Below, one piece after another: positions 169 through 63,217 of a stretch of DNA of 64,000 nucleotides; position 1 is the stretch's first letter, and the number at the start of each line of letters is the position of its first letter. A program made the position numbers and the translations under genes. The notes under the pieces are model-generated. The model made no database searches. It had not been told where the DNA came from and was given only the letters and a program-made list of their open reading frames with translations. Origin of the DNA: a virus; the IMG/VR virus record IMGVR_UViG_3300045988_046952, positions 1 through 64,000 of that record; one strand, written 5' to 3'.

Positions 169-627
169 TTAACGTCCCCAGAATGGTAGACAGTCGGGGG
201 CGTAGGTTTTGCCATTCCAAGAATATTTAGTAACCTGGGACTTCTCTGTCTTATATTTACTTAATAAGAAAGGGATGTCAGATTGAATACATTTATGGCT
301 AAATGTGTTCTTTGGTATAGGTTTGTTGGTCTTTGGATTCATTTTACCAGTAGTAAAGTTACCACCCTTTACATACACGACCAGAGTTCCAGGAATAGGA
401 ATAGATTTGGCAGGAGCCGGCCATTGATAACTTGGAGCGGGGAATCGTCTATAGCGTTTCCACAACTTACGTTCTTTAGGAGTTTTACTCCACACACTTG
501 GGTCACGTGGTGTTACAGACGGCTGTCTTAAATGCTCTGCCACCATGAAAGCATCATCGGTCAAATCCTTGATTCTTAGTCTTTTGAATCTCTCTTCCGG
601 AGTCTCTTTGATAGTTTCCTTCTTCAT
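169..627 (-). CDS. hypothetical protein (152 aa)
   Basis: ORF track; co-oriented with minus-strand block; no recognisable motifs. Confidence 0.4.
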   Translation of the reverse strand: MKKETIKETPEERFKRLRIKDLTDDAFMVAEHLRQPSVTPRDPSVWSKTPKERKLWKRYRRFPAPSYQWPAPAKSIPIPGTLVVYVKGGNFTTGKMNPKTNKPIPKNTFSHKCIQSDIPFLLSKYKTEKSQVTKYSWNGKTYAPDCLPFWGR

Positions 628-5140: not shown

Positions 5141-6079
5141 TTATAGCATTAAATTGTTAATACGTTTATATTCTTCAAACACTTTGTCCTCTGATTCTTC
5201 TCCCCACATACTGTGAATGAGAACACCGTAAGCACAAGGCTGGTACACAATAGGGTCTACTGCCTTCTTAGTGATTGTAACCTCTGGATTGTTTAATTGA
5301 CCAGGAGGGCAAGCTACAAATAGCTCATTTCTACCTATCTTAACAGCATCAAAGGAAACTATGTTAGGATAGCTAAAACCCTTTACATCAGCAGGAAGAC
5401 CAGGATTCTTGTTAACTATACTGGACAGCCTAAGTGTACCTTCTATATCAGGACCAATAACTATGTGATTATGTGATTCTATGTATTTCTTTAAATTGTT
5501 TAGCATAGTTTCACTGTCACTGTACCCATAGTTAATACCTGTAACATAATAATATGCTCCATTAACATACTCCAATCCTAAATCAGAGAACATGGGTCCT
5601 TCACCACTAAGTTTGCGTTTAACCTCTATGATTTCTCTAATATTACGGTCAGGAATCACTCCAGTGTACTGTTTTAGTAGACCTTTGACAAGTTTATACT
5701 TCTTACAAACTTCATCAAACTGTTTAGAGCCAACCAGAAGAGTACTCTCTCCGAACACCTCTCTTGCACGCTTTACGAAATTAAATAAGTTCTTAGCGCG
5801 CATGGCATCCGTAGCTATCTGATTATATTCAGATATTTTAGCCTGTAATAGCCTAGCATTCTTTGAGCTACCTAGCCCAGCATCAACCAACGTGTTGTAT
5901 TCTCTTATTAATGTATCTCTATTAGGAATATCAACTGATGTCTTGGAAACAGAACGTAGATATTCCTCCATACATAAAGCAAGAGCCATAGCTATGTTGG
6001 ACTGAGTAGTCATCACCGGCATGTCAACCACTTCTGGAGTTATAACTTCAGAATCATTGCGTTTTAGAAATCTAAACAT
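5141..6079 (-). CDS. duplicated-family protein A1 (312 aa), C-terminus GVLIHSMWGEESEDKVF
   Basis: paralogous to 8096-8962 over about 250 aa. Confidence 0.5.
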   Translation of the reverse strand: MFRFLKRNDSEVITPEVVDMPVMTTQSNIAMALALCMEEYLRSVSKTSVDIPNRDTLIREYNTLVDAGLGSSKNARLLQAKISEYNQIATDAMRAKNLFNFVKRAREVFGESTLLVGSKQFDEVCKKYKLVKGLLKQYTGVIPDRNIREIIEVKRKLSGEGPMFSDLGLEYVNGAYYYVTGINYGYSDSETMLNNLKKYIESHNHIVIGPDIEGTLRLSSIVNKNPGLPADVKGFSYPNIVSFDAVKIGRNELFVACPPGQLNNPEVTITKKAVDPIVYQPCAYGVLIHSMWGEESEDKVFEEYKRINNLML

Positions 6080-8091
6080 CAGAAATTGACTTTTAAAGTT
6101 CTACTAAATGTTCCGTCCACTTTAACAATAACGGAATTACGCATAGTAGATGAGAATCCTAATCCACTCAATTGATGTTCTTGGTAAGGAGTCTTCATCT
6201 TATCAGCTAGAACCTCAAATACCTTACGGTGAGGAGTTAGCTCACTGTTAAGATATTCGTTAAAGAATCCACGAACAGGCTCCGGATTCTTGCAATCATC
6301 CAACATAAAGAAGTAATGTTTATTGCCAATACCCTGCTCATCCCAATAATTGGGAGACATCATCATCACGTTCACCTTATGGAACTTGTTAGTATCAATA
6401 TTCCATAGGCTTACTGACGAATGGCTAGTACTGGGTATTAGCTCTCTTATTTGGATGCCTTTAGATTTACTGTAAGTAATCTCGGCAACCATGACATTCT
6501 CTTTATGTTTAACGGGTTTGTCATAGACAAATTGTCGGACTTCTCCATTGTGTTCTATTTCCAATGTAAATCCTGTATCAACAGATTCTCTACAATGAAA
6601 GTTATTAACATACACAACATACTTACCTTCAAGCATCTTGCGTTCGTTAACCCATATAATGTTCTCAACGGGTTTGCGAGTTTTGCCATATCCAGCATTT
6701 TCATCCACGTCTAGCTTACCGCCACTTTTACCAGTTCTGTTAGAATAGTAGATTTCGTTGTATGAAGGTTCAACGACATGCAAATCCAAGTCATCATAGT
6801 TAGACCATGCCAACGAACATCTTAAGAATCCTTCAGTCTGACCACCAGCAGCTCTTACTTTCTCTTTAATAGAATCAGCTACTCCTCCATTATATGTCCA
6901 AGCAAAGTTGTTTGGCCATTTAAATAGGTTCTTAGCATCCTTGTTAACAGGAGCTGTAAGAGTTACTAAGTTATTGGACAGTCTACTTTCCATTAACACT
7001 TCTATGTTAGTGGCAGTAGGTATCACATTAGCAATGAAATCATCAATGCTAATTTCAGTTAACTTGTCAAACTTCTTAGGATTGACTTTAGTGTCTGCGG
7101 CTAGTTCTTCGAATATATTTCCAGCCATTACCTTCTTGGCATCACGATTAGCGAATATAACATTGTTGACTGTTATATCCTCTAAGGCAGCATGTCTACG
7201 AGGTAGAGAATCCATAAGACCTAGTTCCTGCACTTTCTTCTGTGCTTCCTCAATCATTCTTTTAGTAACAATTGACTTAGGTCTTTGATAGTTCTCTGGA
7301 GCCATGATACGTTCGTATGCAGTCACACAATCGTCCAGTTCAAGTCCTGATGATATATTTACCAACAATGTACCAATTGCCGTATTACGAATGCGTGCAC
7401 ATCCTACACGATTGAAGTTTGCCCAACACCAGTTGTCTTTCTCTTCATCAGGTAATGAATCATAGTGTCTTTTATGACCCAGGAATACACTTAAGTCATT
7501 TTTAAACTGTTCTCCTCTATATAAAGCATTCTGACCTATTAAGTCCAGAACTGTTTCTATAGAATCGATAGTTAATTCCTCCAGTGCACGTTTGAACACT
7601 TCCTTAGTTGTGCGTAAAGTCCCCATTACAGCAGATACGGATTCAGTTCCTGTATACACCAATTGATTTGGCATATGATAGTAAAGATGATTCCAGGTAA
7701 TTACTTTAGGACCTTGCAAACTGTCAATATAGGCATTGTTTCTATCAATTCCTAGTTCATAATCACGAGTGATAAAAACATCTACAACTGGTTTTGATTT
7801 CACTAATGCATCGAGATTTCTAGCTACAGTAGCATAAGGTTCATCCAACTGTAGGTTCTCCCACATGGTTACTACTTTATTGTCTTTAATGGCGACAACT
7901 CTACCATAATGTCTGATATAATGTTTACAATTGTTGCAATTATGAGACTGTCTCTCTTCCTCCGGAAAGGAATTAAGGTAACAATCCCATAATGCACCCT
8001 TGTCTACATTAGTCAGAAAGAGCATGTCTGCACCAGCAGCTAGTTGATTAAACTGCGCATGGACTGCTCTTTTAAACTTGACAAATTCCAT
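6079..8091 (-). CDS. large hypothetical protein (670 aa)
   Basis: long uninterrupted ORF flanked by the two paralogs; ATGA overlap. Confidence 0.5.
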   Translation of the reverse strand: MEFVKFKRAVHAQFNQLAAGADMLFLTNVDKGALWDCYLNSFPEEERQSHNCNNCKHYIRHYGRVVAIKDNKVVTMWENLQLDEPYATVARNLDALVKSKPVVDVFITRDYELGIDRNNAYIDSLQGPKVITWNHLYYHMPNQLVYTGTESVSAVMGTLRTTKEVFKRALEELTIDSIETVLDLIGQNALYRGEQFKNDLSVFLGHKRHYDSLPDEEKDNWCWANFNRVGCARIRNTAIGTLLVNISSGLELDDCVTAYERIMAPENYQRPKSIVTKRMIEEAQKKVQELGLMDSLPRRHAALEDITVNNVIFANRDAKKVMAGNIFEELAADTKVNPKKFDKLTEISIDDFIANVIPTATNIEVLMESRLSNNLVTLTAPVNKDAKNLFKWPNNFAWTYNGGVADSIKEKVRAAGGQTEGFLRCSLAWSNYDDLDLHVVEPSYNEIYYSNRTGKSGGKLDVDENAGYGKTRKPVENIIWVNERKMLEGKYVVYVNNFHCRESVDTGFTLEIEHNGEVRQFVYDKPVKHKENVMVAEITYSKSKGIQIRELIPSTSHSSVSLWNIDTNKFHKVNVMMMSPNYWDEQGIGNKHYFFMLDDCKNPEPVRGFFNEYLNSELTPHRKVFEVLADKMKTPYQEHQLSGLGFSSTMRNSVIVKVDGTFSRTLKVNF

Positions 8092-8095
8092 AATC

Positions 8096-8962
8096 TTATA
8101 AAGGTTTAATATTGTCGAATATATTGTCTTCGGCTTCTACTCCCCATTTAGAGTGAATCATTACCCCTATTGGAGTTACTTGAAATACAAATGGGTCATT
8201 ATTAATGGGAATAATCTTCCTTTCCGGAACTGTAAACCGCATCGTTTCATTCATTTCTTCAATAGGAGCGGCAATGAATAAGTCAGCACTGCTACATTCT
8301 TTTGAATCAGCAATGTTCACATCATGTGCCTTGGCTTTATTAAGGATATGAAAGAATGGATATGCATTCATTCTAGCCTTATTTCTACTCAAATACATAA
8401 GCCCAACCTGGGAAGGTTCCTGTCTAATGAAGTACCTTCCAACCGGATAGGACATGCTATCAATAGGCATAGGGTGAGTAGCAACTTGCATACCAGTAAC
8501 ATACCGTAAAGGTGAACCGTTTCCGCTGTAGTTAACATACTCATTTGCCTCAAGTGCTTGAGCAGTAGCCATTACCTTGGAGATTTCATCAATGTTCTCA
8601 TCAGGCACAGAACCTTTATAAGCTGATAGTCTTCCAACAACTAATCCATACTTAACATTCAGATTAATGAAATCCTCCTCCTTAAGTATCAATGAGCCAG
8701 GGAAATGTCTTTGCAAAAAGCTATAACATTTTAAGACTTTAAGGTCCTCTTCCGAAGTGATAGCATCACCTACTTCTTTAGAATTAGTAAATCCTAAAGC
8801 TTTCAGTTTGACAGCCTTATCAACTAGTTGATGATTCGGATTCAGACCCTTAATAGTCTTCATGTACTCTACAGCCATTAGAGTATAAGCTAATTGCACT
8901 TCTTGGGCTGTGAATCTCTTTGTGCCTACAGACGTATCTGTAGAAGGACTAAAATTGTTCAT
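8096..8962 (-). CDS. duplicated-family protein A2 (288 aa), C-terminus GVMIHSKWGVEAEDNIF
   Basis: paralogous to 5141-6079. Confidence 0.5.
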   Translation of the reverse strand: MNNFSPSTDTSVGTKRFTAQEVQLAYTLMAVEYMKTIKGLNPNHQLVDKAVKLKALGFTNSKEVGDAITSEEDLKVLKCYSFLQRHFPGSLILKEEDFINLNVKYGLVVGRLSAYKGSVPDENIDEISKVMATAQALEANEYVNYSGNGSPLRYVTGMQVATHPMPIDSMSYPVGRYFIRQEPSQVGLMYLSRNKARMNAYPFFHILNKAKAHDVNIADSKECSSADLFIAAPIEEMNETMRFTVPERKIIPINNDPFVFQVTPIGVMIHSKWGVEAEDNIFDNIKPL

Positions 8963-9082
8963 AATTACTTTTGTTTAACTGAACCTGGTCTGGTAGTAGC
9001 TCTCTTAAATGAATCAGATTGCTTATCCCACCAAGCCTGTCGGTCTTTAAGACGTTGTACTTTCTTCTTGTATTTCATAGGT

Positions 9083-14681: not shown

Positions 14682-16139
14682 TTATTTGTTGTCCTTCTTC
14701 TCCGTAGAGTAGTCCTTACGGTCGAGTTCCCACTGATACTCACACATCTGAGTGATTGCTTCAAGCTTCTCTGTACCCAGAACGAGTTTGAGAGCATTTA
14801 CCAATCTTTCAGCCGGAGTTTCCACAACAGCTTTCTTGGATGCGAGTCCAAGTTGACGTTGATAAGATTCAACGCTAGCTTTGATATGGAACGATGTTAC
14901 ATGGGTTTCTTCTGTAAAGATGAGTTTGGATTTGGTTGATTCAACGATTTCAGCCATAAATGCCGGAGCAATTTCAGCTTCTTGAATGTAGTTACATACT
15001 TCACTCAAATCATCGTCGATTGTATATCCTTCTTCAGCGGTGAAGGTAGAACGGATGAATTTCTCCGCAGTTTCAGCGTCCAGGCAGTCCATAGTAATCA
15101 CAGAGCCGATTCTCTTACCTCTCAAGAAGGTAGGTTCAATCAATTCAATGTGATTAGTAGTGAACAAGGTGATTACGTTCATATCTTTGGTATCACCACC
15201 GTCCAGAGTATTCAGGATGTCTTGCATTGCAGCATCTCTGTTACCTCTAGTTACTTGGTCAATATCTTCAACAAATACGACAACACCATGACCCGAACGG
15301 TCAACAACTTTACACATGCGCAGAGTTTCTGCAAGAAGAGAAGGATTCTTCAAATACACGAATGACCAGCCGTTTGTTACAGCATCTTTAGCCAGCTTAA
15401 ATGCCAGCAAGGTCTTACCTGTACCATATTTACCTTCCAGCAAACAACCATATTTCAATGGAATACCTTTAGCCAGACATTTCTCTGGATACAAGATTCT
15501 TGAGCGTAGCGGTTGCAATTCAAATTCAGTCTTCTTAGAAAGAACCATGAATTGTTTCTCGATGCCGGCAAGTGTCATGATAGTAGGTTCAGACAGATTG
15601 CTGATTTCCAGTGCTTGATTCTTGTAGATAGATTCTGATGCTAACAGCTCTTTAGTTCTGTCAACAATATCATCAATCAATGACTGGTATTTGAACTGGC
15701 ATTGTCCTTTAATAAGGAGTAAATGACGGTCATTGTCATAGTTGATGTTGATTTCAGAATCCTCTCCCAATTCTTCAAGGCTGATTTTACCAAACGGAAC
15801 CTTGGTACGAGAACCGTCTGCCAGAACAACGTCTACGGTATCAATATTGCTGTTTCCAGAAGGACTGTTATCCTCCTTACTAACGGCAGAACCGAAGATT
15901 TCATTGATTGCTCTGTTCAACTGATATACACCGTCCGGTTTCCAACAAAGCAGCGAGTATTTGAAACTTGCCATTTTCTTGGACTGTTTGATTTCACCTT
16001 CGATGAATCCCAGAGCATCAGCATACTTCACGTTGCTTTGGAGCACTTCAATCATTCTCTGTTTCTGAGTTTCCTCGTACTTGTTAACTCTCTGCTTAAT
16101 AGCAGCTGTAGTTCCTTGCGGAATAATGTTCTTTGCCAT
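14682..16139 (-). CDS. AAA+ ATPase (classical AAA clade)
   Basis: Walker A GKYGTGKT, Walker B VVVFVEDID, second region of homology TTNHIELIEPTFLRGKRIG. Confidence 0.7.
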   Translation of the reverse strand: MAKNIIPQGTTAAIKQRVNKYEETQKQRMIEVLQSNVKYADALGFIEGEIKQSKKMASFKYSLLCWKPDGVYQLNRAINEIFGSAVSKEDNSPSGNSNIDTVDVVLADGSRTKVPFGKISLEELGEDSEININYDNDRHLLLIKGQCQFKYQSLIDDIVDRTKELLASESIYKNQALEISNLSEPTIMTLAGIEKQFMVLSKKTEFELQPLRSRILYPEKCLAKGIPLKYGCLLEGKYGTGKTLLAFKLAKDAVTNGWSFVYLKNPSLLAETLRMCKVVDRSGHGVVVFVEDIDQVTRGNRDAAMQDILNTLDGGDTKDMNVITLFTTNHIELIEPTFLRGKRIGSVITMDCLDAETAEKFIRSTFTAEEGYTIDDDLSEVCNYIQEAEIAPAFMAEIVESTKSKLIFTEETHVTSFHIKASVESYQRQLGLASKKAVVETPAERLVNALKLVLGTEKLEAITQMCEYQWELDRKDYSTEKKDNK

Positions 16140-16504: not shown

Positions 16505-16599
16505 GAATGTTTATATCCGCTCACAATTAACAGTTCTCAAAGAGTAGTGTTGTTAGTGACTTCATGATAAATCCTATTTTAAACTGAAATAATTAGTAG

Positions 16600-16671
16600 T
16601 TGGGCTACCAGGATTCGAACCTGGGCTACAAGAGCCAAAACCTTGTGTGACTACCACTACACCATAGCCCA
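16600..16671 (-). tRNA. tRNA-Gln(TTG)
   Basis: U1:A72 acceptor TGGGCTA/TAGCCCA, anticodon arm CAAGG-TTTTGGC-TCTTG. Confidence 0.75.
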
Positions 16672-16692
16672 GTAAAAGGAGTCCGAAGACTC
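16672..16692 (-). terminator. intrinsic terminator after PurA/PurZ-like gene
   Basis: RNA GGAGUCUUCGGACUCC followed by UUUUAC. Confidence 0.5.
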
Positions 16693-17760
16693 CTAAACTA
16701 ACTTATCGAATATCATGGGTTGTATCGACATCCATAAATTCGCTAGCATTTCTTGCTCTGCGTCAGATGCTTCATCCCAATGTGATACGTACAATTTCTC
16801 CGTTCGTTCATTCCTATAAGGAACTTTAAATGAACGGTTAATGCGTACACTGTGTGCGAATAGGTCTTTGTCGAAATCAATAGCCCTAAGCGTCTTCTGG
16901 AAATCGTTGAACTTATTATTAGGGTCATCGACATCCCTAACAGACATTCCAGAAGGAAATGGGCCGTTACCATGCCTTGTTATATAAGGACGAGTTACAT
17001 AACAAGTTTGGATTTCTTTACGTATACCTGCTTTCCGCAACAGCTCGTAAGCGTTTTGTGAAGTTGTATTAGACGGAGTGCAATAAGGCATTATGCCGAA
17101 TCTTTGGTCAAGCAATATTCCCTGTGAACCTTCAAACACTAGGTTATCATAATTCAACAAGCAATCTTCATTAACCGTACCTGTATGTAAGAAATAAGCA
17201 TGTGCTAACCTACACCAGTTGTCTAGGTCTATCGAAGGATATTTACTAGACATGTTGTAATAGTTATCCACTATGGCATTTAGTTTCTCACGCAGTATGT
17301 AAGGATTCATACAATCTACAACTGTTAAGCTGTATCCTGCCTTAACTCGGTCCAAACAAGCTTTAAACCCTGTACCTACAGTACCATGTCGTAAGTTCTC
17401 TTCATTATTAACTTGGGAATAGACATCGAAGGGAATTACAACTTGGCAGTGAGGGTGATACTGAACAATGGGATGAACTCCCATTTTAGCTAAGTCTGCA
17501 CCTTCTAACATAGAGGTAATTGGGTCTACAGTACAGTATTCGGACCAATACGTCGGCACTCCAAGTAAGGTTCCGCTGCCAAAGTTACTAAAGGTGTGCA
17601 TCATGTCTCCATGCTTTACAGTATGTCCTACTTGATGTCCACCACTAAACCTGACTACTAATACAGACTCTCGCTTACCTATGTACTTGTTACATAAGTT
17701 GTGAACTGTCTGTCCCTTACCGCAATCGCCGAAGAAACTACCTAAAACTATATTTATCAT
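16693..17760 (-). CDS. adenylosuccinate synthetase family protein, short form (PurA/PurZ-like, 355 aa)
   Basis: P-loop GDCGKGQ (compare PurA GDEGKGK), SGGHQVGHTV (compare GGHNAGHT), FEGSQGILLD...PYCTPSNTT (compare FEGAQGTLLD...PYVTSSNTT), GNGPFPS. Confidence 0.7.
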   Translation of the reverse strand: MINIVLGSFFGDCGKGQTVHNLCNKYIGKRESVLVVRFSGGHQVGHTVKHGDMMHTFSNFGSGTLLGVPTYWSEYCTVDPITSMLEGADLAKMGVHPIVQYHPHCQVVIPFDVYSQVNNEENLRHGTVGTGFKACLDRVKAGYSLTVVDCMNPYILREKLNAIVDNYYNMSSKYPSIDLDNWCRLAHAYFLHTGTVNEDCLLNYDNLVFEGSQGILLDQRFGIMPYCTPSNTTSQNAYELLRKAGIRKEIQTCYVTRPYITRHGNGPFPSGMSVRDVDDPNNKFNDFQKTLRAIDFDKDLFAHSVRINRSFKVPYRNERTEKLYVSHWDEASDAEQEMLANLWMSIQPMIFDKLV

Positions 17761-17764
17761 AAAA

Positions 17765-18514
17765 TTATACTATTGTGCTACTTAATGTATGAGTTATCTC
17801 TGCTTCACATTGTCTACAATTCACCCTTATCAAGGTAACTGCATCCTTATGTCTATCACAGAAATTATTAAGTAGCTGGTCCCTGTATTGCTGCATTTGG
17901 AAATCAGCCATGCTATCATAGAATCTATAGGTTGGGCTGAAGTGCTGTTCCCCATCGTACTCTATGAAATACTGACGTCCTTTATGCTTTACAAAGAAAT
18001 CAATAACTAATCTATGTGAGGGTCTGTCTATCTCCTGGTTAATCAATACGAATTGTCGTTCATAACGAATATTACTTCGTTGTAACCACGCTTCAATTAT
18101 ATTCTCTCCACGAGACTGTTTGCATCTAGGACATCCACGTCCTTTCAGATGGTTATCTGGAGTTACGTAAAATTCCCCGTGCTTTTTGCACATGATACAA
18201 ACCTTAGTTCTAGAATTAACATACTCTACTTTAGAGTAGTTATATCTGTCGCCATGTTTGCTAACAGCCTTCCTTACAAATTCTTCGGTAGTAGAAGAGA
18301 AGTGGTTTCTTAGTTTAGTACCCTTGCATTTAGGGCATCCATGCTTCCTATTAATATGTTTGGCGGGAGTTTGTTCAAACTCTCCATGCTCCGGACATAT
18401 AATGGTTACTTTAGAGTTCATATCTACATAGACGACTTTACTATAGTCGTATTTGTCTCCATGAACATCTCTAAACCTAGATATTACTTCCTCCTCGGTC
18501 AATTTCTTACCCAT
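17765..18514 (-). CDS. homing-endonuclease-like protein: three Zn-ribbon repeats plus DUF559/Vsr-like nuclease motif
   Basis: repeats CPEHGEF...KH..GCPKC (three copies); C-terminal RLVIDFF...IEYDGEQHF. Confidence 0.5.
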   Translation of the reverse strand: MGKKLTEEEVISRFRDVHGDKYDYSKVVYVDMNSKVTIICPEHGEFEQTPAKHINRKHGCPKCKGTKLRNHFSSTTEEFVRKAVSKHGDRYNYSKVEYVNSRTKVCIMCKKHGEFYVTPDNHLKGRGCPRCKQSRGENIIEAWLQRSNIRYERQFVLINQEIDRPSHRLVIDFFVKHKGRQYFIEYDGEQHFSPTYRFYDSMADFQMQQYRDQLLNNFCDRHKDAVTLIRVNCRQCEAEITHTLSSTIV

Positions 18515-18548: not shown

Positions 18549-19481
18549 TTAATAAAATTTGTCATTACTATCAGACGGCACATCTTGCCATTCCTGACTA
18601 ACAGAAGCACTAGGAGCTAAGCCTTCAACAGGCTCCTCATAGTTCTCTTTAATTGCGGTGACAATCACCTTGTCTACTTCTCCAGATGCACATGTCAATA
18701 CATTCTGTCCAAGTAAAGTCTTCCAAGATTCAGCAACCCTTGAGCCATGACTGGCATTAGTAATGTGAATGTGGAATACATGGTACTGTTCCTTTGCTTT
18801 GTCAAGAGCTTCTTGACAAGTAATGGTTTTAGCACCTTTTTGATACCCTAGAACACGTTTTAAGTAACATCCCTCTACCTTATCGAGATTTGGTTCATCT
18901 CCAATAGTAAATAAGAATCCCTTAGTGTGTCTTTCAAACCAGGAATCAGTTTCAGTATGATAACCCGCTACGATGTGAGATAGTAGATAGCTTTCACCTC
19001 TATTACCTCCTCCTCCACCTTCAATCACGAATGACTGTAAAGTGTCAAGGATTTTAGCTGTATCAGACTCAAACTGACCAATTTGAATTGGATATCGGTC
19101 ATAAACGTGGTCCCCAACTGCCATAAACATGATTTGTGGGTCACGCACACCTAGTTGAATGAGAGAGTCCATAATCTTAGGGAATTGGTCTCTAATCATT
19201 TCATAAGGTGTGTCCACCATTGAACCAGTAACGTCTAGCGCAATGATTATCGGAGTAGAGAAAGGATGTTCTTTAGAATCACGAGATTCACGAACACCCA
19301 CGTTAACCATTTCTTGCCTTATCTGCGTGTTATACTGCCTAACATTGTTGTTAAGCGATGCAGCAGTATTACATGCATTAATGGCATGGCTCTTAAAGAG
19401 TTCATCCCTAGTGGAGGTATATAAACCCCTACTGCCGGCCTCTACATCATAAGCAATTCTAGAATAACTACCTGCTCCCAT
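18549..19481 (-). CDS. von Willebrand factor A (vWA) domain protein
   Basis: MIDAS-like IIIALDVTGSM. Confidence 0.55.
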   Translation of the reverse strand: MGAGSYSRIAYDVEAGSRGLYTSTRDELFKSHAINACNTAASLNNNVRQYNTQIRQEMVNVGVRESRDSKEHPFSTPIIIALDVTGSMVDTPYEMIRDQFPKIMDSLIQLGVRDPQIMFMAVGDHVYDRYPIQIGQFESDTAKILDTLQSFVIEGGGGGNRGESYLLSHIVAGYHTETDSWFERHTKGFLFTIGDEPNLDKVEGCYLKRVLGYQKGAKTITCQEALDKAKEQYHVFHIHITNASHGSRVAESWKTLLGQNVLTCASGEVDKVIVTAIKENYEEPVEGLAPSASVSQEWQDVPSDSNDKFY

Positions 19482-19484
19482 AAA

Positions 19485-19865
19485 TTATTCATTTACAGTT
19501 GCAGCAGCGTCATCTTTCACGTCATCCAAATTAATGGATTCTGATGCATCAGCGGGAAATTCTTCTGCATCGACTTGCATAGCTAGAGCAAGTTCAATCT
19601 TTGCAACACGCAGTTTACGTGCCAATTCATGTCTTGTTCTTACCCATTCAGCCGGATTCAGTCCTTCTCCCGGATTCAAAGAGTCTCTTGATTTAACAGC
19701 CAGGTCATTGTGTTTGTTGATTTCTCCCTGAATGCGAAGTACTTTCAACTTACAATCCTGAACGAATCTGTCTTCCTCGATTTTAGCCAATTCATACAGA
19801 TTCTGCGCTCTTGCATCAAGTACACTTTGTCCACTCTTACTTAATTTCTCTTTAAAACTGCTCAT
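19485..19865 (-). CDS. hypothetical protein (126 aa)
   Basis: ORF track. Confidence 0.4.
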   Translation of the reverse strand: MSSFKEKLSKSGQSVLDARAQNLYELAKIEEDRFVQDCKLKVLRIQGEINKHNDLAVKSRDSLNPGEGLNPAEWVRTRHELARKLRVAKIELALAMQVDAEEFPADASESINLDDVKDDAAATVNE

Positions 19866-30041: not shown

Positions 30042-30044
30042 AAG

Positions 30045-30116
30045 TGCCCCATGTTGGACTCGAACCAACGCCATACAAGTTTAGAATTTGCTCTTCTACC
30101 ACTGAAGTAATGGGGC
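30045..30116 (-). tRNA. putative amber suppressor tRNA (anticodon CTA)
   Basis: acceptor GCCCCAT/ATGGGGC, D-arm CTTC-AGTGGTA-GAAG, anticodon loop TTCTAAA (U33, CUA, A37) on stem GCAAA/CTTGT with G:U and A:C at the ends, T-arm GTTGG-TTCGAGT-CCAAC. Confidence 0.5.
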
Positions 30117-32433: not shown

Positions 32434-34128
32434 TTAGACCTTCACAGGCTTCTTCTGCACGCTTGCATTCTTCTTGACAACATCCTTCTCTAGAATCATC
32501 ATATTAAGCAACTCTTGATTCATAGCATGCTTAAAGATGTCTCTAGTGGTTTTAGGCACCTGGAACCTCTTCTCTCCAGTAATAAATGAGGATGTTGAAT
32601 TATTAAGTCCATTTACTAAGAAGCAATTTGACACTCCTGGAACCAAAGCCACATTAGGTCTTCCCTTATATGCTAAAGGAACTCTCCAAATGGTAACTTT
32701 GAATGCTCTTACAAATTCCTTACTGAAATTTGCTTTAAGCAGTCTTTGCTTAAATTCCACGAATGCTTGGTTGTTCAACTTGGTAAAATATGTATGGTTA
32801 GTAATTACCACACAGCCTCTAGGGAACTCTCCTTCATCCACACCATAATCTTCTTTCATTTTACACAGCATTTCTGCTATATTAATAATAGAAGGATTCT
32901 GGCATAATGCTTCTTCTTTGTCAGATTTCCATTTCTCAATGACATTCTGACCTTTGAACTTACGTAGAACCATGTTATCTTCTAACACGGCATAGGAGTT
33001 CTTGAATATTGTAGGAAGTAATTCAGAATGATATAAAGCATATGCTTTACCCAAACTGTAAGCAGATGTTTCGCTATTCTCTATCTCACCATTAGCAGAA
33101 TGACTTATATCTCTTACTACCAACAACGGAGCTACTCTATTGCGTTTAGCATTATCAACGAATACGTTGAAACTTGCATTAATAGAAGTTTCCATAAATT
33201 CTGGAATCTCTTCGGCAATTTTATCCAGTCCATATGGTTTGAATAAAGTATGTAGAAATCCGCTATTAGAGGGCTTCTTACGGTTCTTCAACCAGTTCTG
33301 ATACTTCTCTTTAAGACCTTGATGTTTGAGGAATTTAGAGCCTACTAGCTGTGCCAGCGCCTTTCCAGTAACAGTGTCAAAATCAATTTCCAAGAATTTC
33401 TTTTGACTGATTAACTGCTGCCATTGGGCTGCTTTCCCGCTATTCTTCATCTTCCTATATTTACGATAGGTGGAATAGTCTCCTTCGTCCTTAGGTTTAC
33501 CATAAAGGCCTTCCGCCAAGAATTTGGCTACTGTGTTACGTGCTTTTGCCTCATCTGTCTTACATGCAACACTGGAACGAACACGAGGAAGATACTTCTT
33601 TACTAAATCACATGTCTGACCATTAGCAAGACCTGCAAATATGACTTTCTTGAAGAAGTCCCAATCCAATCTGTGCTTAAAGCCATGGAGTTGAACATCT
33701 AAAGCCATCATAGTAATGAAATCTTTCCAGCATCCAGCTGCTGCAAAATAAGCAATGTTGGCATGGAATGTGGGTTTGTGATAGATTGCCAACCACAGCA
33801 TCCTCATTATACCTTCATTCTTCAAACCTTCTCCTTGCTGTGTATCAAGCTGTATAACTCCTTCCGGGGTAGTTATTCTACATTTACGAGTTATCATTCT
33901 CGTATATGCAGTAAACTTGGTACATAGTAATGGATTAGCTTTCCATAAAGGATACATATCTTTAGCCACTTGCACGTAGGTACGTGGCTGAAGACATTTC
34001 TTAAGATTAACAAACTGGTCTATGAATAACTGATTATTATCCACAAACTTAGGTTTATTCTCATCCCGCCTTTGACGTGCGGCATTAGGGTAAGGCCTCC
34101 TTGGCCTTTGTGCTCCTTTCATTTCCAT
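32434..34128 (-). CDS. vWA-domain protein (564 aa); TROVE/Ro60-like architecture possible
   Basis: MIDAS DxSxS in PLLVVRDISHSANG after a roughly 330-aa N-terminal domain; size and architecture resemble Ro60; untested. Confidence 0.5.
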   Translation of the reverse strand: MEMKGAQRPRRPYPNAARQRRDENKPKFVDNNQLFIDQFVNLKKCLQPRTYVQVAKDMYPLWKANPLLCTKFTAYTRMITRKCRITTPEGVIQLDTQQGEGLKNEGIMRMLWLAIYHKPTFHANIAYFAAAGCWKDFITMMALDVQLHGFKHRLDWDFFKKVIFAGLANGQTCDLVKKYLPRVRSSVACKTDEAKARNTVAKFLAEGLYGKPKDEGDYSTYRKYRKMKNSGKAAQWQQLISQKKFLEIDFDTVTGKALAQLVGSKFLKHQGLKEKYQNWLKNRKKPSNSGFLHTLFKPYGLDKIAEEIPEFMETSINASFNVFVDNAKRNRVAPLLVVRDISHSANGEIENSETSAYSLGKAYALYHSELLPTIFKNSYAVLEDNMVLRKFKGQNVIEKWKSDKEEALCQNPSIINIAEMLCKMKEDYGVDEGEFPRGCVVITNHTYFTKLNNQAFVEFKQRLLKANFSKEFVRAFKVTIWRVPLAYKGRPNVALVPGVSNCFLVNGLNNSTSSFITGEKRFQVPKTTRDIFKHAMNQELLNMMILEKDVVKKNASVQKKPVKV

Positions 34129-37246: not shown

Positions 37247-37326
37247 AAATTTACTAATTAAAAGCCCAAGTGTGTTTCACAACATGACTGGGCAAGCCTA
37301 AACTATACAAAACTTTAAAATGATTG

Positions 37327-37394
37327 AAGAGGATGGGAGATTCGAACTCCCACTACTAGTTGTAACTAGCCTTCTACCATTAAACTAATCCTCT
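37327..37394 (-). ncRNA. truncated tRNA-like element (68 nt; anticodon arm replaced by 5-bp stem plus tetraloop)
   Basis: acceptor AGAGGAT/ATCCTCT, D-arm GTTT-AATGGTA-GAAG, CTAGT-TACA-ACTAG hairpin, T-arm GGGAG-TTCGAAT-CTCCC. Confidence 0.45.
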
Positions 37395-60785: not shown

Positions 60786-61038
60786 AGAATATGTGGCTAA
60801 ATTAAAGCTAGAAGAGCTACAAACTGCCGAGGGGACACATAGGGGTTATAAGTTAACACTTGGCATGAATAATATAGACAAGCCACTTATTATATCGTTT
60901 GAGGGTGGTGAAGTAGCGTATCTTAAATTTCTTAGACAGGAATTAAGAGATAGAAGATTAGGCGACACACATTATTTCCTAGGATATAAACAATATAACG
61001 GATTAGAGAGTTGTAATGAGTGCACAGAACAGGAGTGA
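60727..61038 (+). CDS. hypothetical small ORF overlapping TerL end and portal start (103 aa)
   Basis: ORF track; may be spurious. Confidence 0.25.
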   Translation: MTLQELEVAIRDLFKQIYHKEYVAKLKLEELQTAEGTHRGYKLTLGMNNIDKPLIISFEGGEVAYLKFLRQELRDRRLGDTHYFLGYKQYNGLESCNECTEQE

Positions 61039-63217
61039 TGAGTACTTAATGGAGCATATTGATAAGGCAGTGTCAGAATTAGTATTTCCTAAGTACAAAT
61101 TACAGAAAGCATATAATTATTATAATGGATATAGAGATGCCGAACAATATAGGTATCTAGAAGAGAATTTTGGAATAGGTAATCCTACTTCTATAGAATT
61201 TACTCCTCTTATCAGGAAGCATGTTGATGCTTTACTTGGAGAATACCTAGGTACTCCATTACTGCCTAAAGTGTCATGCAAGGATAAAGAAACTATATCT
61301 AAGATATCTAGAGATAAGGAATTACAAATTAATAAAGAAGTATATCAATACTTACAACAACATCTTAACAATCAGATACTAGCGTTCTTAGGAGGACAAG
61401 AAGTAACTGATAAGGCTGTAGAGGCTCAACTTAATAAGTTAGTAGAAGATATTAATAATAGCTTTGTTAGCGAGTATGAAATAGCTGCACAGAATGTTGT
61501 TGAGTATATAATCCAATCTAGAGATATTAACTTACTTACTAAGTTAAAGAACCTGTTACTTGACTTACTAGTAACTGGCATGAGCTTTTACCAGGTTCAT
61601 CCTAGTAGGAAGAGAACTAATATAGAAATAGAGGTATTAGACCCACGTAATGTATTCGTTGATAGAAATCCAGAATCTGTATATGTTAGAGATAGCTACA
61701 GAGTAGTTATTAGACGTTGGTTAACTAAGCAACAAATACTTAATAAATATGGTCCTCAACTAGATACAAGTAGTATCAATGAATTAGAGGAGATGTTTGA
61801 GGGATATTACGATAGTAGTTATATATATGTACGCGCTATGAGCAATCAAGCTACTGGAGCTCCTATTACAGACGGACTCGAGGCGGGTAAAGAAGTAATA
61901 CCTGGATTCCCTACCGACTACTATGAGACTTACAATTATAAGTTAATACCTGTGTTTGAAGTTGAGTGGATTGATGTTGATAAAGAAGGAGAAGATTATG
62001 TAGAGAATAGATATGAAGGAGTTAAAATCGGAGAATCTATTTACATTCTTACTGGTAAGTCTCCTGATGTAGTTAGAACTAAAGATAATCCTACACACTG
62101 TGGATTGTCAGTTAATGGTTTGTTCTTTGTAAACAGAAGTAACGAACCATATTCACTTGTGCTTGCATGTTCACATCTTCAAGACAAGTATGATTTGATT
62201 ACTTTCTTTAGGGACAATGTAATTGCTAATAGTGGTACTAGTGGAGACTGGATTGACTTTAGTATGCTACCTATGGCTCTTGGTGATGATTTGACTGAAA
62301 GATTGCAGAAATTCATTGCCTATAAGAAGACTGGTGTGGCTCCTATTGATACTTCACAAGAAGGTAGGGCATTTAACAACAATACTTCTTTTGCTGGATT
62401 CGATGACTTATTAAAAGCTGATACTATTCAGGCATTTAATATGGCGTTGCAGATGTTAGAAGAGCAGACATCATCTATTACTGGAGTGTTTAGAGAGAGA
62501 TTAAATGGAATAGAAACTAGGGATGCTGTTAGTAATGTTAAGGCAGGTATGAGAAACTCTTATATCATTACTAAATCTTACTATCAACAAATGGATACTT
62601 TGGCAGAGGATATTCTGATTGATTCTCTTAATTGTGCTAAGAAGGTATGGAAACATAAACCACTTACTGGAACTTTAGTGCTAGGTGACAAACTACAGAA
62701 AGTATTTACTGCTCTCCCTGAACATTTTACTTTTACTGACTATGATATTCATGTAATAGCTAGTAGTAGAATTATGGAGGAAATGCAGAACATGCAACAG
62801 TTAATGATTGAGTTCATCAAGAGTGGTCAACTAGACCCAGACATAGCTATGGAGTGCATGACTGCCAGAAGTATGACTGAACTCAAATCTAAATTGTCTA
62901 AAGCATTTCAAAAGAGAAGAGAAGAAACTCAGAACACTGCACAGATGCAACAACAGAACGAAGAGCTACAGAAGCAACTTCAAAAGGCGGAACAAGAGAA
63001 AGAGCAGCTTAATAATAAGATTGCATCTCTTAATGAAGCTAAGATTGCTATTGATAGGCAGAAGGTTGAATATGACTATGAGATTGGCCTTATTAAGGCT
63101 AACGCTGATAGAGATTATAAGCAGAGTACTTCTGACAATGACACCAAAAGAACAGATATTGAGATAGCCCAATTGTACGATGGGAATCAGCAGAATAACG
63201 AAGTGAAGAACGTATAA
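61016..63217 (+). CDS. probable portal protein (733 aa)
   Basis: large ORF immediately downstream of TerL; size and position only. Confidence 0.5.
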   Translation: MSAQNRSDEYLMEHIDKAVSELVFPKYKLQKAYNYYNGYRDAEQYRYLEENFGIGNPTSIEFTPLIRKHVDALLGEYLGTPLLPKVSCKDKETISKISRDKELQINKEVYQYLQQHLNNQILAFLGGQEVTDKAVEAQLNKLVEDINNSFVSEYEIAAQNVVEYIIQSRDINLLTKLKNLLLDLLVTGMSFYQVHPSRKRTNIEIEVLDPRNVFVDRNPESVYVRDSYRVVIRRWLTKQQILNKYGPQLDTSSINELEEMFEGYYDSSYIYVRAMSNQATGAPITDGLEAGKEVIPGFPTDYYETYNYKLIPVFEVEWIDVDKEGEDYVENRYEGVKIGESIYILTGKSPDVVRTKDNPTHCGLSVNGLFFVNRSNEPYSLVLACSHLQDKYDLITFFRDNVIANSGTSGDWIDFSMLPMALGDDLTERLQKFIAYKKTGVAPIDTSQEGRAFNNNTSFAGFDDLLKADTIQAFNMALQMLEEQTSSITGVFRERLNGIETRDAVSNVKAGMRNSYIITKSYYQQMDTLAEDILIDSLNCAKKVWKHKPLTGTLVLGDKLQKVFTALPEHFTFTDYDIHVIASSRIMEEMQNMQQLMIEFIKSGQLDPDIAMECMTARSMTELKSKLSKAFQKRREETQNTAQMQQQNEELQKQLQKAEQEKEQLNNKIASLNEAKIAIDRQKVEYDYEIGLIKANADRDYKQSTSDNDTKRTDIEIAQLYDGNQQNNEVKNV

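Follow-up and report, generated by a model that had tools for sequence, protein, structure and literature searches.

The subject of this work is a 64,000-nucleotide (nt) stretch of viral DNA (IMG/VR record IMGVR_UViG_3300045988_046952, positions 1 to 64,000; hereafter the window), and within it a gene for a short homolog of adenylosuccinate synthetase (PurA). We report here, as a new finding, that this gene is one half of a widespread two-gene module in which a PurA-like enzyme is strictly linked to a partner protein with a vWA fold. Judged from its sequence, the enzyme belongs to a large, phage-restricted third clade that is neither PurZ, the enzyme associated with 2-aminoadenine (Z) genomes, nor canonical PurA. 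We put at about one in two the probability that it is a nucleoside triphosphate (NTP)-dependent purine C6 amidoligase that works with the vWA partner and uses an acceptor and/or an amine other than inosine monophosphate (IMP) and L-aspartate. The two genes of the module are located in the window as follows.

16693..17760, minus strand: PurA-like gene, ATG start, 355 amino acids (aa); PF00709, PHROG 1211
18549..19481, minus strand: vWA-fold partner gene, 310 aa; residues resembling a metal ion-dependent adhesion site (MIDAS), D83-x-T85-x-S87 ... D195; N-terminal Met-Gly; PHROG 2971

Strict linkage of the PurA-like gene to a vWA gene

Across IMG/VR, the vWA gene was found directly upstream of the PurA-like gene and on the same strand at 78 of 80 loci; at the remaining two the contig breaks off, so that the arrangement holds for 78 of 78 informative cases, with a gap between the two genes of mostly 7-12 nt. 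It was also present at nine more loci (L001, L009-L012, L014, L015, L025 and the window), the examined loci including a gut phage with 58% identity, three environmental phages (one on a 399-kb contig), the faecal scaffold MT835469, MoMoMixon, RHph_Y65 and Va1. The upstream vWA-like genes are gp257 in MoMoMixon, EVB97_018 in RHph_Y65 and Va1_038 in Va1. In a set of 50,697 phage records the PurA-like and vWA genes occur in nearly equal numbers (Mycobacterium, 202 versus 201; Rhizobium, 10 versus 10; Vibrio, 6 versus 6). The canonical-type PurA of a megaphage (L024) has no vWA neighbour.

All distant homologs of the partner protein, those of mycobacteriophages as well as those of gut phages, share the N-terminus MG.G.[WYF]....Y, a conservation that is unusual for a cytoplasmic protein, and three arginines of the partner (R48, R64 and R67) are invariant. 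PADLOC returned no match for the PurA-like/vWA pair, which leaves it without support as a known defence system, and comparison of the vWA protein with Ter-specific models gave no match.

At locus L080 (IMGVR_UViG_3300045988_050010, 7278-9008) a single 576-aa open reading frame (ORF) joins vWA residues 1-249 to the PurA-like protein from residue 13 onward. We rejected this fusion as proof of an interaction and treat it as a defective variant or an assembly artefact; the in-frame deletion removes the C-terminus of the partner together with the P-loop Asp of the enzyme.

Relationship of the PurA-like protein to adenylosuccinate synthetase

A sequence-only reading of this DNA had described a 355-aa protein of the adenylosuccinate synthetase superfamily with five PurA signature motifs, and this description proved sound. 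The ORF is real and its translation contains all five motifs: GDCGKG (residues 11-16), GGHQVGHT (40-47), FEGSQGILLD (209-218), PYCTPSNTT (225-233) and GNGPFP (264-269). The protein matched Pfam PF00709 (adenylosuccinate synthetase) with E=5e-33 and 114.9 bits (cutoff 27) and PHROG 1211 with E=6e-45. An AlphaFold2 model made with 60 homologs as input (pLDDT 94, pTM 0.93) retrieved bacterial adenylosuccinate synthetases as its top PDB folds in Foldseek, with H. pylori 9F17 first (E=2.6e-21, TM ~0.72, 24% identity) and E. coli next, and the closest PDB sequences are likewise those of bacterial PurA. Sequence and predicted fold both point to a genuine relative of adenylosuccinate synthetase. The Pfam match is partial (protein residues 4-273, profile positions 1-277 of 416), and because it stops at residue 273 the loop that binds aspartate in PurA (Asp loop) is beyond the alignment.

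At the stop codon of the gene we noted by eye a hairpin, GGAGTC-TTCG-GACTCC followed by TTTT (16674-16693, minus strand), that is absent from the terminator-scan list; it sits just before a tRNA-Gln gene (16599-16671).

Retention of catalytic residues and replacement of ligand residues

The PurA equivalog models scored the window protein far under their cutoffs (NF002223, 95.4 bits against 402; TIGR00184, 86.7 against 395.55), about a quarter of the required value, and the archaeal-type PurA model NF003295 gave 58.3 bits against a cutoff of 368. We compared residues, given below in E. coli numbering, in a MAFFT alignment of 259 family members with 4 canonical PurA and 7 PurZ/PurZ0 sequences, whose register was checked by hhalign profile-profile comparison (window protein residues 2-331 versus PurA, probability 99.9).

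The catalytic residues are almost invariant over the 259 members (D13 98%, K16 98%, H41 99%, Q224 99%, T239 99%), and the window protein has them as D12, K15, H46, Q213 and T228. With the P-loop Asp and the equivalents of His41, Gln224 and Thr239 in place, the machinery for NTP-dependent phosphorylation of the purine 6-oxo group is retained. In fold, motif order and these five residues the protein resembles bacterial PurA (E. coli 1ADE/1CG0; H. pylori 6ZXQ/9F17).

The residues that bind the substrates, in contrast, are replaced throughout the clade. In H. pylori adenylosuccinate synthetase (PMC11571797, Table 3), Arg135*, Thr230, Asn37 and Thr121 bind the IMP phosphate, the carbonyl of Val264 and Arg294 bind the ribose, and Arg294 and Arg296 bind an anion in the aspartate site. 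The E. coli-numbered equivalents are Arg143, Thr239, Asn38 and Thr129 for the phosphate, Val273 and Arg303 for the ribose, and Arg303 and Arg305 for the aspartate-site anion. N38, T129, R143 and V273 are identical in all 4 canonical PurA and all 7 PurZ/PurZ0 proteins, whereas in the clade N38 is Q in 98% of the members, T129 is V or C in 95% and V273 is H in 99%, and the position aligned with R143 is not Arg (G142 or K140 in the window protein, depending on the alignment). At the other IMP-ligand positions the window protein has Q43, V128, H263 and, for R303, T290 or K289; T228 is the one kept.

The Asp loop has changed as well. The canonical pattern tested, G-x-T-T-G-R-x-R-R, does not fit the window protein, and across the clade T300-T301-G302-R303-x-R305-R306 has become x-x-Q-[GK]-x-[FLM]-R. 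In the window protein the loop reads N285-D-F-Q-K-T-L-R292-A, with F-Q-K-T-L-R-A standing for TTGRxRR and both T300 and T301 gone; of R303, R305 and R306, at most one Arg survives in the clade, whether MAFFT or hhalign is used. In the guanine-recognition region, S-H-W-D replaces T-K-L-D (330-333); the D333 equivalent is kept (76% of the family) and K331 is H or C. Compared with bacterial PurA, the window protein also lacks the last ~90 residues, including the S414-x-G416-P guanine loop, which falls beyond its truncated C-terminus. GTP may still serve as phosphate donor, given the retained Asp333 equivalent, even though the C-terminal guanine loop is missing.

With its catalytic residues conserved and its ligand residues replaced, the protein has an intact core for the chemistry and rebuilt elements for the recognition of IMP and aspartate. 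Identity with canonical PurA was rejected on the equivalog scores and on the clade-wide replacement of the IMP and aspartate ligand residues. A more lenient version of it would be that the gene is an auxiliary metabolic gene for a genuine adenylosuccinate synthetase, which makes adenylosuccinate from IMP, L-aspartate and NTP and so boosts AMP/dATP by means of divergent binding residues, the vWA protein perhaps replacing the homodimer partner and donating the missing Arg residues in trans. We consider this unlikely, though it is the main rival to our proposal. The full catalytic set, with an Asp13 equivalent that fits a hypoxanthine base, agrees with it, as do the bacterial PurA proteins found as closest folds and sequences and the invariant R48, R64 and R67 of the partner; as in canonical PurA it is the second subunit that contributes Arg143 in trans (PMC11571797), a heteromeric site is conceivable. 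Moreover, the full-length members from mycobacteriophages and Rhizobium phages keep a PurA-like length, and the mycobacteriophage one keeps an S-W-G-P guanine loop. Against it, the protein scores 95 and 87 bits where 402 and 395 are asked for; N38, T129, V273, T301 and R303/R305/R306, which PurA still shares with the anciently diverged PurZ, are replaced in 95-99% of the clade; the Pfam match ends ahead of the Asp loop; and the vWA partner, found with this clade and never beside PurA, has no counterpart in known purine pathways, the canonical-type phage PurA of L024 being without one.

Comparison with PurZ

The sequence-only reading had put the gene forward as a PurZ candidate, and this did not survive. 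The residue that discriminates PurZ from PurA is Ser14 in phiVC8 PurZ and Asp13 in E. coli PurA (PMC12884076; bioRxiv 10.1101/2025.10.22.683976); the Ser is found in 100% of 147 phage PurZ/PurZ0 proteins, and 99% of the canonical PurA group have the Asp (PMC12884076), and the mutation S14D abolishes the selectivity of PurZ (bioRxiv 10.1101/2025.10.22.683976). The diagnostic residue of the window protein is Asp (GDCGKG). In each of the 254 relatives whose P-loop is readable it contains GD and never GS, against GS in 7 of 7 PurZ/PurZ0 references. The NCBIfam PurZ model NF038379 scored 19.3 bits (cutoff 300), with residues 192-264 alone matching.

In a neighbour-joining tree (distance-based, 200 bootstraps, archaeal PurA left out), PurZ and PurZ0 form a split with 100% bootstrap support and the window protein falls in a different clade, also with 100% support. 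The fold ranking and the phmmer scores agree with this placement: PurZ matched canonical-type PurA with E=1e-16 and the clade of the window protein with E ~1e-3, while in the fold search PurZ0 ranked 15th and PurZ from 32 down (14-18% identity), below canonical PurA. A PDB sequence search with the window protein retrieved no PurZ structure, and by tblastn its similarity to PurZ is barely detectable (E=0.03-0.2). Nor does the tree place it inside canonical PurA, the outcome that the earlier reading had set against PurZ; its place is in the third clade.

Genomic context gave the same answer. In true Z-phages, purZ is flanked by datZ, mazZ, dpoZ or a primase gene. With DatZ, MazZ, DpoZ and PrimPol from phiVC8 and S-2L as queries (E<=0.01), we found no match in the 64-kb window or in 10 kb past each of its ends (~84 kb of a ~185-kb genome), and none in 5,465 ORFs around 90 related loci, in searches of these ~84 kb and 90 loci made without DutZ, DmtZ or DUF550 sequences of their own. 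The earlier remark that no MazZ, DatZ or DpoZ is recognisable in the window is thus borne out. In INPHARED, the clade of the window protein (~220 records) and PurZ (211 records) hardly overlap.

The size of the protein, which had been read as typical of PurZ or archaeal-type PurA, has a different origin. The hhalign alignment is colinear between window protein residues 2-331 and E. coli residues 4-342, after which the window protein ends, whereas PurZ is short through internal deletions and keeps a C-terminal G-[FYW]-G-P loop. As the window protein is shortened at its C-terminus, we rejected size as evidence for either type; the architectures differ, and the similar lengths are coincidental. 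It was also mistaken to assume that a phage PurA homolog is typically a PurZ enzyme, because PurZ accounts for 147 of the 481 homologs in NCBI viruses (PMC12884076).

The PurZ reading, in which dGMP and aspartate would be converted towards dZMP and A replaced by 2-aminoadenine, failed every sequence test applied, and we rejected it on the Asp P-loop, the NF038379 score, the tree, the absence of Z-partners and the different architecture. What a PurZ-like enzyme has in its favour is a phage-encoded homolog of PurZ-like length, the loss of the R303-type 2'-OH contact as in the PurZ/PurZ0 proteins of known structure (phiVC8 6FM1, S-2L 7ODX, Gordonia phage Archimedes 7VF6), and the ~100 kb of the genome that lie outside the Z-partner search. 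These weigh little against the Asp in the window protein and its 254 relatives where PurZ has GSTGKG, the position outside the PurZ/PurZ0 clade, a fold rank below canonical PurA, and the loss of N38, T129, R143, V273 and the aspartate-binding T301, R305 and R306, all of which PurZ keeps. Furthermore, no Z-partner was found although Z-phages have datZ and mazZ in synteny with purZ, and the metaGPA study found its Asp-type homologs on unmodified contigs. We regard a PurZ-like enzyme as very improbable.

A third phage clade of PurA homologs

The clade of the window protein in the neighbour-joining tree (100% bootstrap) contains its own family together with homologs from cluster C mycobacteriophages, Rhizobium phages of the RHph_Y65 type and a human-faecal phage scaffold, and it also takes in the PurA-like gene of Vibrio phage Va1 (Va1_039). 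The signature substitutions (Q for N38, V/C for T129, H for V273) are common to these relatives, among them MoMoMixon gp259, RHph_Y65 EVB97_019 and Va1_039, and so is a loop signature N-x-x-N-x-x-Q-x-x-[FLM]-R, seen in the window protein as N282..N285..Q288..L291-R292 besides Q43, V128 and H263. These three homologs have 31-33% identity to the window protein. Those of the mycobacteriophage (442 aa) and of the Rhizobium phage (416 aa) are full length, the former with the C-terminal S-W-G-P loop, whereas Va1_039 (370 aa) is C-terminally shortened like the window protein.

The clade is large. About 200 records of cluster C mycobacteriophages contain such PurA-like genes, and an exhaustive HMMER search of 1.84 billion representatives (E<=1e-30) gave a family of 1,171 clusters at 50% identity, with lengths of mostly 350-450 aa in the best 150 of the 1,171. 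A published tree of 481 phage homologs contains 147 PurZ and very few members of the E. coli PurA group (PMC12884076), which leaves roughly 330 phage homologs outside both named groups. Megablast of 14-22 kb of the window against INPHARED gave no match, and the best protein match there is an unannotated human-faecal scaffold (31% identity). Literature searches brought up no paper on what the non-PurZ phage PurA homologs do or on their pairing with vWA genes.

RefSeq labels the homologs of cluster C mycobacteriophages '2-aminooxy adenylosuccinate synthetase', as it does phiVC8 PurZ, and PHROG 1211 bears the same label. Given the Asp in place of Ser and the position outside the PurZ clade, this label is unjustified and looks over-propagated.

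A proposed reaction with the vWA partner

In the reaction that we propose, the enzyme would form a 6-phosphoryl-purine intermediate, from which an amine would then displace the phosphate. The purine acceptor, the amine or both would differ from IMP and L-aspartate, and the product would be an N6-substituted adenine-type nucleotide that is neither adenylosuccinate nor its 2-amino-deoxy analogue. The vWA protein would act as an obligatory partner, either by completing or regulating the active site as a second subunit, or as donor or carrier of the second substrate.

Several observations weigh against this proposal. The changed substrates are deduced from alignment to solved PurA structures, and the register of the Asp loop differs by one residue between MAFFT and hhalign. 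Arg138, invariant in the family and one helical turn from the R143 position, might substitute for the lost arginine, and the Asp13 kept throughout the clade suits a hypoxanthine-type base as in PurA. The vWA partner could itself contribute, in trans, the phosphate- or carboxylate-binding residues that the enzyme lacks, in which case the reaction would still be that of IMP and Asp. With regard to the partner, adjacency is evidence of linkage and not of physical interaction. In addition, locus L003 (ena:ERZ27259578:k141_93538) has a 731-nt frame-breaking deletion in the vWA gene (corresponding to about 18604-19334 of the window) beside a gene for a PurA-like protein identical to that of the window, which implies that the partner is not indispensable for the persistence of the genome.

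A further, more novel reading concerns the amine, which might be the alpha-amino group of the invariant N-terminal Gly of the partner, exposed after Met removal, or some other non-aspartate amine presented by the partner, joined to C6 of an activated purine nucleotide. This is a long shot, which would jointly explain why the genes are so strictly paired, why the carboxylate-binding arginines are gone and why the first residues of the partner are so unusually conserved. If true, the product would be a protein-N6-purine-nucleotide conjugate, a previously undescribed, base-linked form of post-translational nucleotide tagging.

The substrate may, on the other hand, be a 6-oxopurine in a polymer (tRNA or DNA) or a non-phosphorylated nucleoside, giving an N6-substituted adenine-type base. 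Agmatidine synthesis by TiaS, in which a carbonyl is phosphorylated and then attacked by an amine, offers analogous chemistry. Such a base modifier would account for the change, throughout the clade, of three out of four side chains that bind the free 5'-phosphate of IMP. The phages that carry the gene are large and rich in tRNAs, with 28 in the window and 29-34 in cluster C mycobacteriophages; the PurA-like gene lies within the tRNA array, and genes for RNA ligase, Thg1-like protein, Pnk and DNA ligase occur near its homologs. However, no nucleic-acid-binding domain is detectable in what is modelled as a compact PurA fold, the association with tRNA genes may just mirror large genome size, and we know of no modification in the DNA of cluster C mycobacteriophages. 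We consider this alternative improbable.

Among described systems, the proposed amidoligase and its partner bear a likeness to those of the Ter type, which couple TerF/TerY, a vWA protein, with predicted producers of a nucleoside-like metabolite (Anantharaman, Iyer and Aravind 2012, as summarised in PMC7824862). Both combine a vWA/MIDAS protein with a nucleotide-modifying enzyme. TerD, SPFH/Band_7, HAD, ATP-grasp and kinase genes recur near the pair in relatives, with an SPFH gene 3 kb upstream in the window, and in MoMoMixon a Ser/Thr-kinase gene directly upstream of the vWA gene recalls the TerY-kinase-phosphatase triad. The differences are that no TerB, TerC, TelA or PRTase is linked to the pair in the window, and that we found no PurA-like enzyme among the Ter components described in PMC7824862. 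We take the resemblance as a lead from the literature and not as membership.

Mobile elements and other genes around the pair

The genes surrounding the pair include the homing-endonuclease-like and AAA+ ATPase genes that the sequence-only reading had listed as neighbours of the PurA-like gene along with the vWA gene.

14682-16139: AAA ATPase gene (Pfam AAA 1.3e-13)
17765..18514, minus strand: free-standing homing endonuclease gene, 249 aa, DUF723/HNH-type (phrog_559 1.5e-56, Pfam DUF723)
19485..19865, minus strand: 126-aa ORF that stops 3 nt before the vWA gene begins; conserved immediate upstream neighbour of the pair in gut-phage lineages
22337-24298, minus strand: SPFH/Band_7 protein, 653 aa (Pfam 1e-24), 3 kb upstream of the pair

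In the window the endonuclease gene splits the pair, having inserted into a 7-nt intergenic spacer. Among 21 IMG/VR loci with a 99-100% identical PurA-like gene, 11 carry the endonuclease (789-nt gap) and 10 are without it (7-nt gap); the polymorphic loci are L026-L044, L075 and the window region 17765-18514. The endonuclease is a mobile insertion and not a functional part of the pair. At L015 (7891-9993, on the 399-kb contig), the vWA gene is split into ORFs of 501 and 161 aa by a LAGLIDADG-bearing insertion that could be an intein or an intron-encoded endonuclease, and that represents a second, independent mobile-element insertion at the vWA/PurA-like locus.

The 126-aa ORF has a 65% identical counterpart at the same position in L001 and is present in 11 of 32 lineages; searches of Pfam, PHROG, NCBIfam and PADLOC gave no match to it. 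In 15 of the 32 lineages, among them mycobacteriophages and many environmental lineages, the vWA gene is closely preceded by a gene that combines a J-domain (HPD motif) with a kinase-like part and that the window lacks (L009 1535-2665, which is MoMoMixon gp256; L012 7819-8703; L014 7950-8834). MoMoMixon gp256, a Ser/Thr kinase homologous to the others, matched Pfam Pkinase with 34 bits. A HAD-family phosphatase (HAD_SAK_2, 15/32) and an R2K ATP-grasp ligase (13/32) are also found near the pair in other lineages and not in the window. The AAA ATPase and a 297-aa ORF, which is unrelated to the kinase-like gene of other lineages, were rejected as conserved members of the module because neither recurs across lineages.

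At L001 (19274-21080), a Band_7 gene followed by two TerD genes lies ~8-10 kb downstream of the PurA-like gene. Vibrio phage Va1 has a NADAR-domain gene (L025 10095-10745; Pfam 9.7e-49) ~1.1 kb upstream of its vWA gene, with anaerobic ribonucleotide reductase genes farther upstream.

The phage and the wider window

The window contains phage hallmark genes (terminase and portal, 58.5-63.2 kb) and has a GC content of ~0.38. Copies of the identical PurA-like protein occur in 504 blocks of public assemblies, on contigs of ~185 kb; some IMG/VR matches have Human Microbiome Project-type sample identifiers, and the nearest GenBank relatives are human-faecal scaffolds. The source is a very common human-gut phage. 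Two of its other proteins are in yet more assembly blocks, a 152-aa protein at the left end of the window (169-627) in 13,996 and the portal protein (61016-63217) in 5,263. The lineage is thus extremely prevalent in public metagenomes. In the extensions (L106/L107), ferritin, helicase, DnaB-like and Toprim genes lie beyond the left end of the window and tail-fibre genes beyond its right end. Upstream of the PurA-like, vWA and endonuclease starts (17761-17800, 19482-19520, minus strand) the DNA is A/T-rich with no Shine-Dalgarno-like purine run, as might be expected in a host that relies weakly on Shine-Dalgarno sequences, for example one of the Bacteroidota.

The PurA-like gene lies inside an array of 28 tRNA genes mixed with small ORFs (3215-37394, minus strand). 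One of these tRNAs has a CUA anticodon of the amber suppressor type (30044-30116; called tRNA-Pyl by ARAGORN), and another, odd one (37326-37394) was called with a two-base anticodon. Recoding of TAG by the suppressor tRNA was considered and rejected: there is no convincing lengthening of ORFs in the window, where TAG is the stop codon of 9 of the 64 ORFs that have at least 120 codons. Two further proteins are encoded in this region.

6079-8091, minus strand: DUF8224 protein, 670 aa (phrog_1735 E=5.5e-261)
32434-34128, minus strand: 564-aa ORF at the edge of the tRNA array (phrog_850 'RNA-binding protein' E=1.5e-11; no Pfam match at E<=0.01)

Proteins of Vi01-like Ackermannviridae and of Serratia, Klebsiella and Bacillus Tsarbomba-type phages share 46-50% identity with the DUF8224 protein, and their annotations are inconsistent (hypothetical, 'DNA-directed RNA polymerase', 'DUF2135').

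Significance of the third clade

Phage homologs of adenylosuccinate synthetase are now routinely taken as markers of Z genomes. The third clade makes up a large share of them, roughly 330 of the 481 from NCBI viruses and, in metagenomes, 1,171 clusters at 50% identity, and includes one of the most frequently assembled human-gut phages. A PurZ or PurA label on its genes would mislead predictions of Z-DNA, and the mis-annotation is already spreading through RefSeq and PHROGs. Cultured and genetically tractable carriers exist in Bxz1-type mycobacteriophages, Vibrio phage Va1 and Rhizobium phage RHph_Y65. If the substrates are new, the module would add a reaction to the nucleotide chemistry of phages, leading to a new N6-modified purine or a nucleotide-derived metabolite.

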